Below are positions 6,598 to 55,388 of a stretch of DNA of 64,000 bases, piece by piece. Every line of letters starts with the position of its first letter. Within the stretch, counting starts at the first letter, position 1. Under the pieces are notes generated by a model. That model did no database searches and was not told where the DNA came from. It was given only the letters and a program-made list of their open reading frames with translations. The translations under genes were made by a program, and so were the position numbers. The stretch spans positions 8,910-72,909 of the forward strand of contig DDEW01000002.1 in NCBI GenBank assembly GCA_002336935.1, written 5' to 3'. Origin of the DNA: Candidatus Saccharibacteria bacterium UBA1944. Lineage in GTDB: Bacteria > Patescibacteriota > Saccharimonadia > Saccharimonadales > Saccharimonadaceae.

Positions 6598-6842
6598 CGG
6601 CGCTTTGAATGCCGGTTACGGCCCTTGAAAAGAATAATAAGAGCAATAACAATCAGGACAATGCCCACTCCGACGCCAATGATCATATTGGTACCAGTGC
6701 TGGGTAATGCTCCCGAATCTGTAGACGTGCAGGCCTGCTGGGAATTATACGTTCCTGCACCATATGCGCTACAGTCGTAGTCTGCAGTGGCTCCAAACGT
6801 TGTTGAAACGCGCACAATAGGGGAGCTTGCATTTATAACCAT
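6594..6842 (-). CDS. Small LPXTG-type cell-wall sorting protein (82 aa)
   Basis: LPSTG (6693-6707), then a hydrophobic helix and a KGRNRHSKRR tail. Two Cys flank YGAGTY. A -10-like element lies immediately upstream. Confidence 0.6.
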   Translation of the reverse strand: MVINASSPIVRVSTTFGATADYDCSAYGAGTYNSQQACTSTDSGALPSTGTNMIIGVGVGIVLIVIALIILFKGRNRHSKRR

Positions 6843-6875
6843 TGCCAGTATAATAACCTTTAGAACTATAACGTA

Positions 6876-6899
6876 CAGGATACCCCGAAGTAGGACACT
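6876..6899. repeat. IS terminal inverted repeat (transposase 3' side)
   Basis: CAGGATACCCCGAAGTAGGACACT versus the reverse complement of 7927-7950, CAGGTCCCTTTGAAGTAGGACACT: 18/24 identical, inner 13 bp perfect. Confidence 0.85.
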
Positions 6900-7848
6900 A
6901 AGCCTGTATTGTTAAGTACTCTAAGTATACCTCATTTGCTGTTTTGTAGCCCAAGACTTGTCTTGGGCGTTCGTTTAGGTACGTTAGTACCGTAACGATC
7001 GTTTCTTTTGTGACCGTGCTAAGATCTGTCTTCTTCGGGATAAAGTGACGGATCCATTTGTTCGTGTTCTCAACCAGCCCCTTCTCCCAGCTATGGTAGG
7101 GATGGGTGAAATAGAACGGCGCACCCAGTAGTTGTTCGAAATACGTCCAGTACGTAAAGGCAATGTCGTTGTCAGTGAGGATAGTTTTGACGGCAACGCC
7201 GTCAAACATCTTCCGTAGAGCTCGCGAGAGCTCTTGTTTGGTTCGGTTGGGGAGTAGTTCTATGAGGGCTCGTTTGCTGAGTGTATCGACGGCCACGAGC
7301 AGCACAGTCTTGCTCCCATTCGTCCCGTCACGGTTCTTTGTCGGGCTGACGATGAAGTCGAGCTCCCAGTGGCCAATCTCATCACATAGGATACGCTCTT
7401 CAATCCACTTCCGTTCACCGATGAGCCCACGGCGATACATCGCTTTGCGTCGCTTTGGTTTGCCTCGAAAGTACAGCTTGTGCTGTAGTGCATAGATCGT
7501 GACGTAGCGATAGATAGTCCGTTTTGAAACAGGACAGTCACGGCTACCCGCAATCTCGCCCGGAGACCAACTCTTGTCGAGGCTGTCGTCGACATATTGG
7601 CGCAACGCTTTGTCGCGAGCAACTTTGTTACTAGACGTTCTCGCATAGTAGCGCTTCTGGTAAGCCTTGATGCTCGCTTTGCGAGCGACGTATTCGCCAG
7701 AAACCGCCAGGTGCTTCAGTTCATAGCTGATGGTATTGGGGCTGCGCCCCAACTCACCAGCTATGTAACGAATGCTTTTACCGTTCTTATGCCAATGCTC
7801 TATCTTAACTCGATCTTCATAGCTTAAGTGATCGTACTTCTGACCCAT
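6898..7848 (-). CDS. IS30-family DDE transposase
   Basis: N-terminal HTH HLSYEDR..IE......SIR.IA..LGRSPNTISYEL; catalytic region GHWELD, ILTDND..F, HPYHSWEKGLVENTN..IR.F.PK.TDL. Start may be 7848 or 7905. Confidence 0.92.
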   Translation of the reverse strand: MGQKYDHLSYEDRVKIEHWHKNGKSIRYIAGELGRSPNTISYELKHLAVSGEYVARKASIKAYQKRYYARTSSNKVARDKALRQYVDDSLDKSWSPGEIAGSRDCPVSKRTIYRYVTIYALQHKLYFRGKPKRRKAMYRRGLIGERKWIEERILCDEIGHWELDFIVSPTKNRDGTNGSKTVLLVAVDTLSKRALIELLPNRTKQELSRALRKMFDGVAVKTILTDNDIAFTYWTYFEQLLGAPFYFTHPYHSWEKGLVENTNKWIRHFIPKKTDLSTVTKETIVTVLTYLNERPRQVLGYKTANEVYLEYLTIQA

Positions 7849-7926
7849 AGCTACTATTGTAGATTTTGATCTGCTTGTTTTTCTAACTTTTCTATACCGT
7901 TTCATACATCCTCGCCTTTCTTGGCG

Positions 7927-7950
7927 AGTGTCCTACTTCAAAGGGACCTG
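7927..7950. repeat. IS terminal inverted repeat (transposase 5' side)
   Basis: AGTGTCCTACTTCAAAGGGACCTG, partner of 6876-6899. Confidence 0.85.
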
Positions 7951-7979
7951 GAGGTAAAAATCAAGGGAGAGCTACCGCT

Positions 7980-8159
7980 ATGCCGAACATCGGAGTACCA
8001 GAACTAATCGTTATTCTTGTCATTCTCCTCCTTCTTTTTGGAGCCAGGAAATTACCAGAACTTGCACGCAGCATTGGTTCTTCAGCCAAAGAGCTGAAAG
8101 GTGCAATGAAAGACGACGAGCCCGCAAGTGGCAAAAAGAGCGACAAAGACAAAGACTAG
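7980..8159 (+). CDS. tatA: Twin-arginine translocase subunit TatA (59 aa, below the ORF-track cutoff)
   Basis: Manual translation [59 protein letters not shown]: TM helix, FG hinge, KLPEL.RS.G amphipathic helix. SD-like AAGGGAG upstream. Confidence 0.92.
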
Positions 8160-9168
8160 TTTTAAGCATCGTGACGAGTCGGTTCTGCCAACTTTCTTGG
8201 ACCACGTCCACGAGTTGCAGGGCCGACTCTTTGCCATTTTGCTTGCCTTTCTTGTAGTAGGTGGTGCAGCCTATCCATTTTTTGATAAGATAGTAACCCT
8301 GATTGTCGCGCCGCTTGGTAACAGCCAGCAACTTGTGTACCTGACACCCGGTGGCGCCTTTAGCTTCATTATTAAGGTTTGTCTTTATGTAGGGGTCATC
8401 GGTGCATTACCGGTTATTATTTATCATTTATATCGGTTTTTAATGCCCGCAGTGAAAAAAGTACACTTGAGGACCGTATTGGCTTATATGCTTGCATCAT
8501 TTGTATTTGCCATTGCGGGCGTCGCATTTGCCTATGTTGTGAGCCTGCCAGCAGCGCTGCACTTTTTGACGAGCTTTGAGTTGTATCACATCAGCCCCAT
8601 GCTTACTATTGACTCCTATTTTTCTTTCGTTATGACGTATTTGCTAGCGGGGGCACTTCTGTTTCAGCTTCCCATTGTCATGCTTATTATTAACTCTGCA
8701 ACACCGTTGACGCCGAGTAAACTCATGGGTGCTCAAAAAGGAATCATTGTTGGATCATTCGTAGCTGCAGCTATTATTTCTCCTACACCAGACGCGCTCA
8801 ACCAGACACTTCTTGCTTCGCCGATTATCATTATGTATCAGCTGGGTATTGTGATTGTGTGGCTACGAAACCGTCGCTTGCAGCCAGAGAGGCAACGCGA
8901 GGCTGTCCCGCGGCACCAAGAATCAACTCACGACATGGTTTCTAGCCAGGTGGCGTTACTACCGGAGCGATCTGCAGCGGTACTGCTGGATCATAGGGTG
9001 CGTACGCTTGATGGGTTTACAGTACGGCAGCGCCAACATGGTGAGCCAGGGCATCCTAGAATGTCGCTTAGCGTACCTACTCGGCAAACAGCCCAGCCTT
9101 CCCTCGCTTCTGTGTCACATCGTCCGCGGCAGACCATCGATGGTTTTTTTGCCCCCGCTCGCTCGTAA
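8128..9168 (+). CDS. tatC: Twin-arginine translocase subunit TatC with long C-terminal tail
   Basis: [31 protein letters not shown] and [15 protein letters not shown] motifs; six TM segments; directly downstream of tatA. The GTG start overlaps tatA. Confidence 0.88.
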
Positions 9169-9172
9169 ATGC

Positions 9173-9201
9173 TTGTGCTTTTATATAGCTGAGTGTATAA
9201 T
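9173..9201 (+). promoter_or_regulatory. sigma70-type promoter for the 73-aa ORF
   Basis: TTGTGC-17 nt-TATAAT. Confidence 0.55.
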
Positions 9202-9234
9202 TGCTGGCATAAACCATATAAAAATCAAAAAAAT

Positions 9235-9456
9235 ATGAAAACACCACAGCATCTAACAGAGTTAATGAACAAGCGTATGGATCGCCAGGAGTTTTTGAAG
9301 CACCTTGCGGTTGGTACACTATTGGTATTCGGTGGCGGTGCTATTGCTAACGCACTTGGACTATCGCAGCGGTTAGGCATCGATGCGCCGGGTAATGGCG
9401 GCTCTGCACAATATGGTTATGGCGCCAGTGTCTACGGTGGCATAAAACGTTCATAG
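9235..9456 (+). CDS. Small protein (73 aa) consisting of a Tat-like signal/anchor and a Gly/Tyr tail
   Basis: MDRQEFLK followed by the hydrophobic HLAVGTLLVFGGGAIANAL and a C-terminal YGYGASVYGG; has its own promoter. Confidence 0.65.
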   Translation: MKTPQHLTELMNKRMDRQEFLKHLAVGTLLVFGGGAIANALGLSQRLGIDAPGNGGSAQYGYGASVYGGIKRS

Positions 9457-9538: not shown

Positions 9539-10653
9539 ATGGCACGATTACCGCAACCGGGTGGTGACGCAGGAAACTGGGGCGAGATACTAAATGAGTA
9601 TTTGTCGCAAGTTCACAATACAGATGGTACCCTTAGCCGTCTATTATTCAGTCATCAAACCTAGCCACCGATGCAGTAAGCACCAATGCTCTTGCAAATA
9701 ACTCTGTGACAACGAGCGTACTTGCAGTAAGTGGGGGTACGGACGGCCAAGTTCTCACAAAAGACAGCCTGCAACCTGGGGGGCTGGCGTGGCAGTCGGT
9801 AAGCGTTACTGGGGGCGTATCGAGCGTTAATACCCGCACCGGTGTGGTGACGCTAACGGCATCAGATGTTGGCTTAGCAAATGTTAATAACACCGCAGAC
9901 ACCGATAAACCGGTGTCCTCCGCCGTTCAAACTGAGCTCAACAAAAAAATTGATACGACGGATAAGGGTGTCGCAAATGGTGTTGCTACCCTTGACTCGT
10001 CGGGCAAGGTGACCTCATCGCAGATGCCCGTGACGAGTCAGGTGAATAGCGATTGGGATGCAACAAGTGGTGTGGCGCAGATACTGAATAAGCCCACGAT
10101 TCCTGCACAGCTCAATGCAGCTGCAGGCGCCAACATGACAATCACTGGCACATATCCAAACCTTACGTTTGTCGCTGCTTCAAGCGCGACAGATCTTTCT
10201 TTCACGTCGACTGCTACGAACGCGACGATTGCTAGTAGTACTGGCGTTGATGCAACGATGACGGGTGCTTCTGCAACCAACGCGGGTGTAATGGTTGCGG
10301 CTGACAAAACAAAGCTAGATGGTGTTGCAGCCGGAGCTACTGCCAATGCGACCGACGCGCAGCTTCGTGATCGCGCTACGCATACTGGTACGCAGGCTAT
10401 CGCAACGGTTACTGGATTGCAAACCGCCCTTGACCTTAAGCTTGACTCCGCAAATGTAGACATTGACACTGGATTAGTTGCAAATAGTGATACCAAAGTT
10501 GCATCACAGAAGGCAACAAAAACATATGTAGATACGCATCTTGCTACAAAAGCCGATGCCACAATGGTAGGTGCTAAAGTTTTATTAATTGATAACGCCG
10601 CAGCACTTCCCGCGGGCACTCCGGCAGGCGTAGTCGTTGTTGTAAAGGTCTAG
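9539..10653 (+). pseudogene. MARLP-type phage-tail-fibre-like surface protein with an apparent 1-bp deletion near 9635
   Basis: ATG 9539 gives MARLPQPGGDAGNWGEILNEYLSQVHNTDGTL and stops at 9664. The -1 frame from 9637 continues PSIIQSSNLATDAVSTNALANNSVTTS into ORF 9706-10653. Tail-fibre-like motifs: SVNTRTGVVTL...DVGL.NVNNT.D.DKPVS, KGVANGVATLD, QVNSDW.A.SGVAQILNKP, DKTKLDG. Confidence 0.7.
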
Positions 10654-10657
10654 CCCT

Positions 10658-13000
10658 ATGGCCCAATTGCTATTTGGACCGGGAAACAGCGTTACGTTCG
10701 GGTCACTCAATGGGAGCGGCCTCGGCTCTTCAAAGAGTTTTGCCAAGACTTCTCTATCGAATATGGCAGTAGGCGACTTGCTCGTGATGTGGTTCGGCTC
10801 GCAAGATAACTCCACTACCAGTGTTATCACACCTCCGGCTGGCTGGACAAGATACGGCGCTCCTGAGGGTTCACCAAGCTATTCCACATCTCGTCGCTCG
10901 GGAATCTTCTATTACCCGCTTCGCACACAAGCTGACGTGGATAACTTTCCAGCCACATCAACCTGGACATTTGACGCCACGGCCGCAAATGCCCGCGGGG
11001 GATTTGTCGTTGCTCGAGCTGTAGGCATCGATCTCAATAATATTGAGGATAGTGCGGCAACGGCATTTAGTGGTGGTTCGAATGCAACCAGCTTGAGCGT
11101 TACGGGCATTACGACCCAGAATACCTACACGCTTCTGGTTGGTGGCGTTTATCAACACAACTCGGTGGGTATCACCGTACCAACCGCAACAAGTTTTATG
11201 ACCGGCTTTGACCAATATAACTCGACGGCAGTGGGGAGTACTGCCTATGCAAACACTGCCGCAATTATGGGGTATAAAGACCTCAGTGCGAGCGGTGCGA
11301 CAGGCAACCAAACGGCAACGTTCAACTCATTATGTACCGCGCTAGGTGGGGAGTTGGTAGCCTTTAAGGCACTCCCGCCCTCATCATATGTTCGTCCTAC
11401 AGTCATTGCAGGCAGCGTGCTCACGGCAACGGCATCAAGCGGCACGACATTTACTATAAATAAACCAACCGGTGCTGAAGATGGTGATCTATTAGTTGTG
11501 GCTATTTCTGCACAGTCTGCGACTTCTACGACGGACTTTACGTCAAGCGGATGGATGCGGGTTAGTGCCGATTACGTACCAACTAGCGCTACGTATCGCA
11601 TTACTGGTTTTTATGCTCTGCCTGTTCCGATTGCAGCTAACCTTACGTCAACGTCATTCACTTTTACTTCAACAGACCCAGCGGGTGGGCGTATTGCGGC
11701 ATCCATCTTTATTGTTCGACACGCCGATCTTACTCACATTACCGCTGGCAAGCCATCTATGGCGGGCACTGCTAGCTCGGCGACCATTACTCAAACCATG
11801 GGGACTCCAATGGCAAATATGTCGCTGCTCCTTAGTGTTTATAATGGCCAGTTCACAGTCGGTAACAGCTATGCTGTGTCTACGTCGCCTTCGGGCATGG
11901 CACTGGTTTCATCTACACATGTCGCAAGTGCAAATAGTACAGAAACGCCCAATGTGGTTTACTGCCAAGATGTTGAAGCAGTGAGCCAAGGAACACGGTC
12001 ATTAACGTGGGCGAGTGTTCCGGCTCAGACCAGCGTAGCATCGGTGTATATTCGCAACCTGAGCCAACCGGACGCGGTCACTGAGCCAACGGGTGCAATA
12101 ATCAAGTACACCTCGGCACCTGATACACTATCTGACGCAGTGGTCCGCTACACTTCCGCCGTCGATACACTGGCAATACCAAAAGAAGTCCGACCCTTTC
12201 CAACAGGGTACGCTTCGGTAACTGACATGCTTTCAAAAACCATGTTTTACTGTGCGCACCGTGGTGGTTCGCGAGAATGGCCAGAAATGAGCCTATATGC
12301 GTATACGCAAGCCGGCTTTTGGGGGGTTGGCGCGCTTGAGGTTTCTTTGGCGCGTACATCTGACGGCGTATGGTTTGGGCTGCACGACGCAGACATTAAT
12401 CGCACCTCCGGGACAACCGGTTTGCCCAATGCATCGGCAATGACATGGGCGCAGGTTCAGTCATATCAAATACTTGGCTCAACTGCTTTTAACAACCCAG
12501 CTCAGGCAAATCAGCCTTACATGCGCTGGGAAGAGATTGTTGCAACGTATTATTCCACCCACGTGCTGTTTGTGGACATTAAATACGCAGGTAGCTATAT
12601 CGCTGAGTTTATGACCATGATTAATGCCCTTCCCGGTAACCCCAAAGAGCGGATTGTTGGTAAATCCTACGGAGTTGGATCATCCTTCTCGGACACCATG
12701 CGTGCTGCAGGGTATAAAACTTGGGGCTATTACTATGAAACAGACTTCACGCCAACTAACAATATGGCAACCTACCAATCTCACTATGACATTTTAGGAA
12801 TGGACTACAACGCATCTCAGGCGACCTGGGATGCTGTACTAGCATTTGGTAAGCCGGTGATGGCTCACATTCTTCCGACAAGCGCCTCGTACACAACGGT
12901 GCAAACAAAGGTCAACGCAACCTCTCCCGGGGCAAATGCTGCCAACTGGAAAGGTTGCATGGTGTCTGGGGTAATGAGTGTGATACCACGAACACCGTAG
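10658..13000 (+). CDS. Ser/Thr-rich repeat-domain protein with C-terminal glycerophosphodiester phosphodiesterase (GDPD)-like domain
   Basis: Two homologous domains beginning GDLLV(M/V)...GW. C-terminal AHRGGS.EWPEMS..AY...ALEVSLARTSDGVWFGLHD..INRT. No obvious signal peptide. Confidence 0.7.
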   Translation: MAQLLFGPGNSVTFGSLNGSGLGSSKSFAKTSLSNMAVGDLLVMWFGSQDNSTTSVITPPAGWTRYGAPEGSPSYSTSRRSGIFYYPLRTQADVDNFPATSTWTFDATAANARGGFVVARAVGIDLNNIEDSAATAFSGGSNATSLSVTGITTQNTYTLLVGGVYQHNSVGITVPTATSFMTGFDQYNSTAVGSTAYANTAAIMGYKDLSASGATGNQTATFNSLCTALGGELVAFKALPPSSYVRPTVIAGSVLTATASSGTTFTINKPTGAEDGDLLVVAISAQSATSTTDFTSSGWMRVSADYVPTSATYRITGFYALPVPIAANLTSTSFTFTSTDPAGGRIAASIFIVRHADLTHITAGKPSMAGTASSATITQTMGTPMANMSLLLSVYNGQFTVGNSYAVSTSPSGMALVSSTHVASANSTETPNVVYCQDVEAVSQGTRSLTWASVPAQTSVASVYIRNLSQPDAVTEPTGAIIKYTSAPDTLSDAVVRYTSAVDTLAIPKEVRPFPTGYASVTDMLSKTMFYCAHRGGSREWPEMSLYAYTQAGFWGVGALEVSLARTSDGVWFGLHDADINRTSGTTGLPNASAMTWAQVQSYQILGSTAFNNPAQANQPYMRWEEIVATYYSTHVLFVDIKYAGSYIAEFMTMINALPGNPKERIVGKSYGVGSSFSDTMRAAGYKTWGYYYETDFTPTNNMATYQSHYDILGMDYNASQATWDAVLAFGKPVMAHILPTSASYTTVQTKVNATSPGANAANWKGCMVSGVMSVIPRTP

Positions 13001-54291: not shown

Positions 54292-54786
54292 ATGAAAGAA
54301 TTTAGCCTAGAACAAACAAACGCATGGATGGCCAATCTTGAGAAGCGAATGAGCAGTGGTGCTGTGGCGCTTCGAACGGATGACGATAAAGTGGTTGTCG
54401 TAAAAGCAAACTACAAACGCTACTGGTCCTTCCCCGGTGGTGTTGTTGATCATGGCGAGACACCTCGACAGGCTGCGGCAAGGGAAGCCGAAGAAGAGGT
54501 TGGAATTGCCGTAGATGTCAATAGCCTTACCTTCAAACTAGTAGTTGATAGGGTAAGTGAGATTGCCCAGACCTATCAATTTGTTTTTGAGGCCTCGGTT
54601 CGCCAAGAGGATCTGGAAAACCTATGTGCTGACGAAGCTGAAATAGAAGAAATTGCGGTGGTTTCGCGCCAGCAGATTATCGACCGGGACCGTTACTACT
54701 CGCAATCCACAATACGGTGGGCCGAAGGCCACACTGGGTATGAAGAGCAAATTTTTGGTGCCGGTGCAAAAGCAGCAGATATTTAG
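54292..54786 (+). CDS. NUDIX hydrolase
   Basis: Nudix box GGVVDHGETPRQAAAREAEEEVG. Confidence 0.9.
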   Translation: MKEFSLEQTNAWMANLEKRMSSGAVALRTDDDKVVVVKANYKRYWSFPGGVVDHGETPRQAAAREAEEEVGIAVDVNSLTFKLVVDRVSEIAQTYQFVFEASVRQEDLENLCADEAEIEEIAVVSRQQIIDRDRYYSQSTIRWAEGHTGYEEQIFGAGAKAADI

Positions 54787-55388
54787 TTCTTAACCAGCTG
54801 GACCCTACCAAGTGGCTTGGCTGTAATAACAACGCGTCCTGCATCTGAGCCGCCGAGTTCGCAGCTGTAGAGTGTTAGTTTGCTTTCCTCGGAAGGTGCC
54901 TCGATTTCAACTTGCGTTGGTTTTACATCGAATTTTTTGGTGATTTCATAACCATAGCGGATACCGCTATAGTCGACAACAATTTTGTCACCTGCAATCA
55001 GCTTGTCAATGTTATAGAAGGGTGATTTGGCCACGGTTTCGCCTGGGGTAGGGGCGATGGTAAAGCGGTGGGCTGCAATAATAAAGTTCCCACCGGTTGC
55101 TGGGTTGCCACGATCTGGAAAGCGCCACTGTGCGCCACGGTTGAGCGCTGCCTCGCCTTCGCCATACACAATATTCACACCGATTTTGGGAATGACAATG
55201 CGATTATCTGTTGCAGTAGGCGCAGGAAGGTTGTTGACGTTGATTGGCTTCATAGCTACCATTGGTGCGATGGTTGGCGCTGCCACCAGACTCAGTACGT
55301 AGGCGCCGCTACTAAGAAGAACAATAGCCACAAAAGTGAGGCCACCTGAACGGAGTCGGGAAGTGTGTTTCGTCTTTATTTTTAACAT
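54783..55388 (-). CDS. Sortase
   Basis: N-terminal TM, R.VIPKIGV, GNFIIAAH, LTLYSC, downstream R (H/C/R triad). Confidence 0.88.
   Translation of the reverse strand: MLKIKTKHTSRLRSGGLTFVAIVLLSSGAYVLSLVAAPTIAPMVAMKPINVNNLPAPTATDNRIVIPKIGVNIVYGEGEAALNRGAQWRFPDRGNPATGGNFIIAAHRFTIAPTPGETVAKSPFYNIDKLIAGDKIVVDYSGIRYGYEITKKFDVKPTQVEIEAPSEESKLTLYSCELGGSDAGRVVITAKPLGRVQLVKN

Follow-up and report, generated by a model that had tools for sequence, protein, structure and literature searches.

In Candidatus Saccharibacteria bacterium UBA1944, the twin-arginine translocation (Tat) genes tatA and tatC are flanked by two genes for mini-proteins that carry the same short tyrosine-glycine (YG) motif, and the sharing of this motif goes beyond chance. 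The DNA analysed here is a stretch of 64,000 nucleotides (contig DDEW01000002.1, positions 8,910 to 72,909; hereafter the window), in which one of the two genes encodes an 82-residue protein with an LPSTG sortase signal (hereafter the anchor) and the other, 66 nucleotides downstream of the end of tatC, a 73-residue protein with a Tat-type signal (hereafter the Tat mini-protein). A first-pass annotation of this DNA had picked out YGAGTY in the former and YGASVY in the latter, and both its coordinates and its reading frames proved right (Table 1). It had also described a single motif sent along two targeting routes, and this holds as well: the anchor has a sortase LxxTG signal that scores above the TIGR01167 cut-off in a genome with a sortase gene, and the other protein has a Tat-type signal. 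The two mini-proteins are, very probably, two motif-bearing parts of a conserved Saccharimonadales module made up of tatA-tatC, a free Tat-type signal, an anchored stalk and a set of fibres. In this module the signal part consists of a box [SDNT]-R-K-E-F-L (RQ in the window) and, behind it, a tail some 20-30 residues long that ends in G-Y-G-[SA]-S-x-Y-G-G. The stalk part has an exposed N-terminus of the form (Y-G-x-x-x)2-Y, often with two cysteines, and a sortase LxxTG signal or, in some families, a transmembrane (TM) anchor. The fibre part comprises 1-13 proteins without signal peptide that are collagen-like, tail-fibre-like or pectate-lyase-like.

The pattern YGA..Y was picked after it had been seen, which makes conservation the real test of the likeness. 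Counted over all six-frame open frames of at least 40 residues (981,000 residues), it occurs five times in the 950-kb genome, two of these being the window pair, 2.7 kb apart, and shuffling each protein's own residues yields it in 0.19% (ectodomain of the anchor) and 0.45% (tail of the Tat mini-protein) of trials. Y-G-x3-Y is the only invariant sequence of both families besides their targeting signals (R..FL and LxxTG), and the YG pentad is the only sequence that the two mini-proteins have in common; other YGxxxY sites of the genome are not conserved. Lack of conservation and occurrence at background frequency were the two outcomes that the first-pass annotation had named as fatal to its claim, and what we find is homologues that keep the motif and a genome in which it is rare. 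An accidental likeness of two low-complexity peptides could be argued from a short motif defined after the fact and from the richness of both peptides in Gly, Ser, Ala and Tyr. We consider it hardly credible, as it is already contradicted by the conservation data, and the genome-wide rarity, the shuffles, the invariance across the order in both families and the conserved linkage described below all speak against it.

A further tail rich in glycine and tyrosine is encoded outside the window, on G000 contig C8 (2246-3994, minus strand). It belongs to a 583-residue membrane-anchored surface protein with CarboxypepD_reg domains that ends ...YPGYGWGYGGTAY. Relatives without Tat retain a Gly/Tyr-rich C-terminus (GYGWGAGG.., GYGYGYGGL) and lack the YGxxxY pentad, which makes it a conserved G/Y tail of a separate kind.

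The Tat mini-protein of the window (MKTPQHLTELMNKRMDRQEFLKHLAVGTLLVFGGGAIANALGLSQRLGIDAPGNGGSAQYGYGASVYGGIKRS) belongs to a family whose members are almost always named 'hypothetical protein' where a public source gives a name. In an alignment of 41 members (A5), the only invariant columns are R17, F20, G33, Y62, G63 and Y67, with L21 and G68 nearly so; these correspond to the Tat-type box, one glycine of the h-region and the Y-G-x3-Y-G motif. Among 60 best-per-genome matches, an exact YGxxxY lies within the last 30 residues of 55 and a [YF][GS]xxxY variant in the remaining 5, and the tail consensus is G-Y-G-[SA]-S-x-Y-G-[GR]. A phmmer search with the window protein against 1.84 billion representative proteins returned 82 matches, of which 79 are 56-108 residues long, and 73 of these 79 carry the exact motif. 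In 5.8 billion proteins, a profile search found 547 matches to the family; the best 120 of these are all 58-81 residues long and all have the motif. The nearest NCBIfam family, NF038009, matches the window protein over profile positions 4-70 of 70 (E 1.2e-15) with 57.5 bits, below its curated cut-off of 100 bits. The top score for this model in the order is 74 bits, and the cut-off is reached in none of 301 genomes drawn evenly from Saccharimonadales and in none of 351 genomes sampled across the phylum.

With D-R-Q-E-F-L-K, the window protein departs from the consecutive arginines of the S/T-R-R-x-F-L-K Tat box and has the other attributes of a Tat signal, namely F-L-(K), a moderately hydrophobic h-region, a basic residue after the h-region and a TatC in the genome. 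Tat signals of this lineage normally use RK, which is found in 118 of the 120 best family members as against RR in 2; RQ occurs in a minority of the family. The same N-region and box (..LLxKEM[ST]RKEF[LI], followed by h-region and basic residue) head proteins of 360-1180 residues in some genomes, and these large passengers have signal-peptidase-like sites (SKA|S, SHA|A) after the signal. Because the signal recurs on such passengers, the mini-protein is a Tat-type signal with almost no passenger, and a genuine export signal of the lineage. Large proteins headed in this way are encoded at L176:418-1908(-), L176:4615-5697(+), L177:963-2039(-) and L178:760-4305(+); one of them is GH16-like, and the box of the L178 protein reads REDFL. 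In the genus of the window genome the h-region of the mini-protein ends AIANA|L, which resembles a signal-peptidase site, so the tail may be released after export rather than anchored.

Anchors were found by a motif scan of the DNA around mini-protein genes and aligned in two sets, A1 (18 sequences) and A7 (37 sequences), taken from separate sets of loci. In both alignments Y22 and Y27 never vary and Y32 varies little or not at all, with G28 nearly invariant in A1, and the anchor motif thus forms a pentad ladder Y-x4-Y-G-x3-Y; L46, T49 and G50 of the sorting signal are likewise invariant or nearly so in both. Exactly two cysteines surround the motif in 31 of 37 anchors. The window anchor (MVINASSPIVRVSTTFGATADYDCSAYGAGTYNSQQACTSTDSGALPSTG, then the TM helix, then KGRNRHSKRR) has the attributes of a sortase substrate, that is, an LPXTG-type motif, a hydrophobic helix and a basic tail, with a sortase in the genome, and it passes the LPXTG models TIGR01167 (25.2 bits, cut-off 15.9) and PF00746 (20.3 bits, cut-off 20). 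A leader of 4-21 residues without a hydrophobic core precedes the motif in 30 of 37 anchors, including the window's, whose leader, 21 residues long, reaches no more than about 1.1-1.2 on the Kyte-Doolittle scale over 11-12 residues and falls short of a Sec signal; a normal Sec signal peptide is found in the other 7. Lysine and arginine are absent from the exposed part in 31 of 37.

The way in which the stalk is anchored varies, and the YG tag is at the exposed N-terminal tip throughout. Some families have a larger partner instead, of about 230-300 residues: a Sec signal is followed by YGSGNYGACKYSxGC, then by a linker rich in Ser and Thr, a beta-rich domain, a TM helix and RRRK. That the tag is kept on short-leader sortase, Sec-signal and TM-anchored forms argues that it acts after export. 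An AlphaFold2 (AF2) model of the anchor built from 37 sequences is confident only for the helix at residues 49-80 and renders the YG segment as a low-confidence coil; the segment is thus predicted to be unstructured alone, as expected of a linear motif.

Two loci show the tag in other settings. In G063 a third mini-protein (L180:4197-4418(-)), 74 residues long (...SSYGYSSYGAAD...) and without a TM segment, is encoded between the anchor and fibre genes, and some modules therefore have three YG-bearing small proteins. At L051:1625-1987(-), in a genome without a detected fibre N-domain, a secreted protein that contains dockerin-like repeats has the YG tag (LTYGSGPYGGGVYG) at its head, and in this genome the tag may serve other passengers or anchors.

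All open reading frames (ORFs) were clustered in 61 neighbourhoods of 14 kb. TatC is present in 56 of these, a family of proteins with a common fibre N-terminus in 35 and sortase in 10; YG proteins and tatA are also recurrent. The fibre proteins share only a 35-residue N-domain, M-x-R-L-P-x-P-G-x-D-x3-W-G-x2-L-N-x-[FY]-L...H-N-x-D-G (alignment A2), and continue as collagen repeats, pectate-lyase-like beta-helices or phage tail-fibre-like segments; their PHROG matches are to tail-fibre and minor-tail families. None of them has a signal peptide, and a fibre gene is frequently the next one after the mini-protein gene. The N-domain occurs in 112 of the 301 genomes, in 1-13 copies and always at the start of an ORF, and it has no match in Pfam, NCBIfam or the PDB. 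Collagen-like proteins of large Streptomyces phages (BRock and five similar ones) have N-termini that share about 50% identity with it; in BRock (L185, KX925554.1 100799-100924) the gene lies among tRNA genes, outside the tail module, and offers no clue to a partner. An AF2 model of an intact fibre from a single sequence was uninformative (mean pLDDT 41).

No glycosyltransferase, oxidase or other modifying enzyme family recurs in the 61 neighbourhoods. This bears on the proposal that the motif is a recognition site for tyrosine modification or cross-linking (O-glycosylation, dityrosine or another oxidative link, sulfation) by an enzyme encoded elsewhere. Invariant tyrosines amid small Gly, Ser and Ala residues in an exposed, unstructured segment are typical of modification sites, and both segments would end outside the cell. 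We nevertheless judge such a role improbable: besides tatA, tatC, fibres, YG proteins and, at 10 loci, sortase, nothing recurs around the module; the genomes are smaller than 1 Mb and have few spare enzymes; and a modification site alone would not explain the link to Tat and fibres.

TatC, the Tat mini-protein and the fibre proteins are gained and lost together and are usually adjacent. Among the 301 genomes of the order, TatC was detected in 115 and the mini-protein in 117, with both in 110, only one of them in 12 and neither in 179 (co-occurrence table 110/7/5/179); counted by genus, which gives the safer figures, TatC is found in 91 and the mini-protein in 94 of 218 genera. TatC accompanies the fibre N-domain in 106 of the 112 genomes that have the latter. 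All three components are found together in 104 genomes, any one of them in 125 and none in 176. Profile matches to the anchor that cover the motif number 71, in 68 genomes, of which 66 have TatC and the other 2 have the mini-protein; no such match was found in any of the 301 genomes that lacks both.

The genes also lie close together. In 85 of the 95 genomes with both on one contig, the mini-protein gene is within 2 kb of the TatC domain, and 61 of the 71 anchor matches are within 3 kb of a mini-protein gene or tatC. There are two main layouts: the anchor gene is either divergent and just upstream of tatA, as in the window (about 29 genomes), or beside the mini-protein gene (about 32). Tandem operons in the order mini-protein, anchor, fibre, with gaps of 12-25 bp, are found in G063 and G117, and a second locus in G140 has anchor, fibre and mini-protein genes together without tatAC, the anchor and fibre genes overlapping. 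The pair is thus kept together in at least three different gene orders, and linkage that outlasts rearrangement is a classical sign of functional coupling.

Given this close association with TatC, the mini-protein might be an accessory subunit or regulator of TatAC, perhaps one that occupies or primes TatC by mimicking a signal, in which case its likeness to the anchor would be convergent and imply no shared partner. NF038009 is labelled 'TatB_1, twin-arginine translocation system-associated protein', and the near one-to-one co-occurrence with TatC and the neighbouring position of the genes would fit such a role; G/Y-rich termini also exist elsewhere, as in the 583-residue protein, which ends GYGWG.GG even in Tat-less relatives. 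However, the exact Y-G-x3-Y spacing is invariant in both families and unconserved in that G/Y-rich control protein, the anchor gene tracks the mini-protein gene through rearrangements even where tatAC is missing (the second locus of G140), and the same signal on large enzymes looks normal and cleavable. On balance we regard a role as a Tat subunit, with convergence of the motifs, as distinctly improbable.

The first-pass annotation had suggested that the motif is a shared tag for binding, cross-linking or modification. The shared tag stands, as a constrained common element of a genetically linked pair, across the order and in several gene orders; of the three kinds of tag, binding is favoured. 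We lean, tentatively, towards a linear docking tag through which both proteins would engage the same partner, most likely the fibre N-domain, in the knowledge that this assignment could well prove wrong. Docking is favoured because the pentad is the sole shared feature of the two mini-proteins, because the tag is kept whatever the export or anchoring route and so acts after export, and because AF2 finds no fold in the YG segment; binding in particular is favoured because no modifying enzyme recurs with the module and because a third co-inherited family offers, in its conserved N-domain, an obvious ligand. The fibre N-domain is the preferred partner because the fibres need an export route and an attachment point and only this domain, with its Pro-rich RLPxPG and invariant Trp, is conserved among them. 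Tyrosine-rich surfaces commonly bind Pro-rich and Trp-containing segments of that kind.

Tat serves to move folded or oligomeric proteins, so a signal with 20-30 unstructured residues behind it is best understood if something rides on that tail. In the mechanism that we propose, the YG tail of the mini-protein would let folded, oligomeric, signal-less fibres ride through TatAC with the signal supplied in trans, as in a hitchhiker arrangement, and the mini-protein would then hold the fibres at the membrane; the same tag on the anchored stalk would receive or hold them at the cell wall. The motif would in this case act first in the cytoplasm and not only outside the membrane. The full scheme, in which a Tat signal on its own gene recruits the fibres through a 9-residue Tyr-Gly tail and a tag-matched stalk then takes over and fixes them on the surface, is possible but rather doubtful.

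Several points weigh against this interpretation. The contact between the tag and the fibre N-domain is inferred from sequence and gene content. A 20-residue tail is unusually small for a hitchhiker adaptor, and other proteins of the genome with RR-type signals, found in a crude and loose scan, could be Tat substrates of the ordinary kind. The phyletic statistics overstate the association, since related genomes are not independent of one another. The fibre N-domain went undetected in 9 of the 115 TatC-positive genomes, some of which have other YG-tagged proteins, and an anchor-type YG protein lies within 3-7 kb at only about two thirds of the loci. Finally, when the variable motif positions of mini-protein and anchor are compared within genomes, the 34 identities seen against 28.6 expected are not significant (p = 0.065).

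The main rival to docking on the fibres is mutual binding of the two YG segments, in the form of a self-complementary tyrosine ladder or a beta-zipper. In one version the Tat mini-protein would escort the signal-less anchor across the membrane, the anchor being the hitchhiker, and in another the exported tail would be captured by the wall-anchored stalk, tying membrane to wall. Self-pairing would explain why 30 of 37 small anchors, including the window's, lack a hydrophobic signal peptide, and two partners with the same motif are what a homotypic contact would call for; the two genes are also often adjacent or in tandem with gaps of only 12-25 bp, and a few rare within-genome residue matches (YGQSSY/YGQDAY and YGDSPY/YGDGNY) would fit. 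As a sole role it is at odds with the Sec-signal anchors and Sec-signal TM stalks, which need no escort and yet retain the motif. Nor is an escort necessarily required by the short-leader forms: their exposed part, nearly devoid of Lys and Arg (with none in 31 of 37), could cross as an N-tail via YidC/Sec, as the Pf3 coat protein does, and the two conserved cysteines suggest a disulfide formed outside the cytoplasm. Self-pairing also leaves the strict co-inheritance with the fibre N-domain unexplained, and the co-variation is not significant. Overall we rate self-pairing as unlikely.

A pattern scan that covered 185,579 species, each by a single genome, found 72 loci; it used the narrower alignment A6, A5 being too diverse and a single-protein scan coming back empty. 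Nearly all 72 loci are labelled Saccharibacteria or Saccharimonadales, and a few come with unspecific or apparently wrong labels of metagenome-assembled genomes. The complete genome CP025011 (YM_S32_TM7_50_20) is among them and is apparently the one for which Starr et al. (2018; PMC6031116) noted a Tat system, at that time unique among known Saccharibacteria. Outside the order, five genomes of the phylum sample have the mini-protein, and one of these, L182, which lies outside the class, has the whole module. Within the order about 38% of the sampled genomes have the module.

The features of the window that belong to the module or touch it are collected in Table 1.

Table 1. Features of the window around tatA-tatC, with the sortase gene (positions as in the window).
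Feature	Position	Strand	Remarks
YG-LPSTG mini-protein (anchor), 82 aa	6594..6842	-	leader without hydrophobic signal peptide, Tyr triad, LPSTG, TM helix, basic tail
Tyr pentad motif Y22-x4-Y27-G-A-G-T-Y32 (DYDCSAYGAGTY)	6747..6779	-	Cys24 and Cys38 on either side
YGAGTY, anchor residues 27-32	6764..6747	-	between Cys24 and Cys38
LPSTG sortase motif, residues 46-50	6693..6707	-	L46, T49, G50 invariant or nearly so in family
IS30-family insertion sequence	6872..7954	-	transposase 6898-7905; NF033563 163.6 bits; inverted repeats; IS-free relative
tatA	7980..8159	+	PF02416 E 2.6e-16; TIGR01411 over cut-off
tatC, C-terminal extension of ~100 aa	8128..9168	+	PF00902 E 1.5e-49; TIGR00945 148.7 bits, cut-off 132.7
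Tat-signal mini-protein, 73 aa	9235..9456	+	N-region, DRQEFLK box, h-region, ~25-aa tail ending YGYGASVYGGIKRS
Tat-type box R17-Q-E-F-L-K22	9283..9300	+	RQ instead of RR
C-terminal YG motif Y60-G-Y62-G-A-S-V-Y67-G-G	9412..9441	+	Tat mini-protein
YGASVY, Tat mini-protein residues 62-67	9418-9435	+	six residues short of C-terminus
Fibre gene without signal peptide, MARLPxPG..WG..LN N-domain	9539..10653	+	split: 9539-9664 and 9706-10653
GDPD-domain protein, 780 aa, without signal peptide	10658..13000	+	PF03009 E 4.2e-9; context only
Sortase gene	54783..55388	-	PF04203 E 8.8e-17; enzyme needed to process LPSTG signal

The gene for the GDPD-domain protein begins 5 nt past the end of the fibre gene and has the same position in the relative L103; this protein may be a second passenger. 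TatC open frames across the order are mostly about 290-430 residues long, compared with about 210 for the Pfam domain, and thus have a C-terminal extension, which should be cytoplasmic and could be involved in substrate handling.

In the window itself an IS30-family insertion sequence now separates the anchor gene from tatA. Its assignment rests on a NF033563 match of 163.6 bits (against 80), imperfect inverted repeats (about 28 bp, of which a 13-bp core is perfect), and a target duplication (TAA at 6869-6871 and 7955-7957); the assembly holds a single copy. A relative free of the element, L103 (JGI metagenome 3300027924), is near-identical across the fibre stretch and has the empty site, with anchor and tatA genes divergent and 51 bp apart. 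The element sits in this 51-bp divergent region, so that its ends are now 29 bp from the anchor ATG and 25 bp from the tatA ATG. As the anchor frame runs upstream into the element, we considered whether the insertion had truncated the gene; this is refuted by L103, where the gene has the identical length of 82 codons at 51 bp from tatA. Equally short leaders, present in 30 of the 37 members of the family, likewise refute truncation as the cause of the missing signal peptide. In the assembly the fibre gene is short of one nucleotide near 9636, a deletion that is either a mutation or an assembly error, and its counterpart in L103 is intact (371 aa). The mini-protein is found in only 1 of 36 other genomes of the genus, and the module in about 2 of 37. 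Because of the insertion in the promoter region, the fibre frameshift and the rarity in the genus, the module looks to be under loss here and is probably impaired in this genome.

Saccharibacteria are obligate epibionts of other bacteria, and to our knowledge it is largely unknown how they recognise and hold their hosts. The module joins an exporter of folded proteins, a near-bare export signal, a motif-matched envelope anchor and variable phage-type fibres, and a signal acting in trans together with a matching receptor would be a modular principle of surface display and possibly the host-recognition apparatus of these epibionts. If the pentad is a docking tag, it would explain how signal-less proteins reach the surface and stay there, would provide a nine-residue handle for pull-downs, labelling and display engineering, and would broaden the concept of Tat hitchhiking to signals that have a gene to themselves. 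With its patchy distribution, the module is a marker of lifestyle differences among Saccharibacteria. A literature search found no paper on the mini-protein family, the motif, the anchor partner, the fibre link or their function; a 2026 preprint on a pilus of the Candidate Phyla Radiation only notes a 'tail fibre-like protein' near its operon.

Among known systems, the closest parallel on the export side is Tat hitchhiker co-export (E. coli HybO/HybC, DmsA/DmsB and PaoABC; PMC4273604), where signal-less folded or oligomeric proteins are likewise encoded beside the sole bearer of a Tat signal; in the module described here, a dependence of the fibres on TatAC is suggested by their strict co-occurrence. 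The module differs in that the signal bearer is not a folded subunit but a protein of 60-75 residues made of a signal and a 9-residue Tyr-Gly tail, that the signal has RK or RQ and not RR, that its passengers form one polymorphic family with an N-terminal domain as the defining part, and that the tail recurs on a second protein, displayed at the envelope. The NF038009 ('TatB_1') family resembles the window mini-protein, which matches it from end to end and sits beside tatC as the family name implies; the match is nonetheless below the curated cut-off, and coverage by this family is loose.

On the envelope side, the anchor resembles small sortase substrates (TIGR01167, PF00746; NF053819 EF0750, NF058583 LAXTG_small_WW) in its tripartite sorting signal, its very short displayed part and the presence of a sortase gene. 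Unlike these, most YG anchors have no N-terminal signal peptide, display a tyrosine pentad with a cysteine pair and have their gene tied to tatAC, and their scores against NF053819 and NF058583 are far under the cut-offs. The fibres recall, by analogy, three systems in which variable fibres have a short conserved N-terminal module that would fix them to an anchoring protein. The BclA N-terminal domain attaches often collagen-like fibres to the basal layer of the Bacillus exosporium, and N-terminal attachment domains fix the tail fibres of phages. Collagen-like tip fibrillae on endospore appendages (bioRxiv 10.1101/2023.10.23.563578) also have fibrous bodies with a conserved N-terminal module. 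All three differ from the present case in sequence, to which they are unrelated, and in organism and export route, and here the anchor is a mini-protein with a linear Tyr-Gly tag. In logic the arrangement comes near to cohesin-dockerin pairing on sortase- or SLH-anchored scaffoldins, where many passengers share a docking module and an anchored protein shows the matching site; there the parts are folded domains exported by Sec, whereas the present tag is a disordered motif, 9-11 residues long, in a Tat-linked module.

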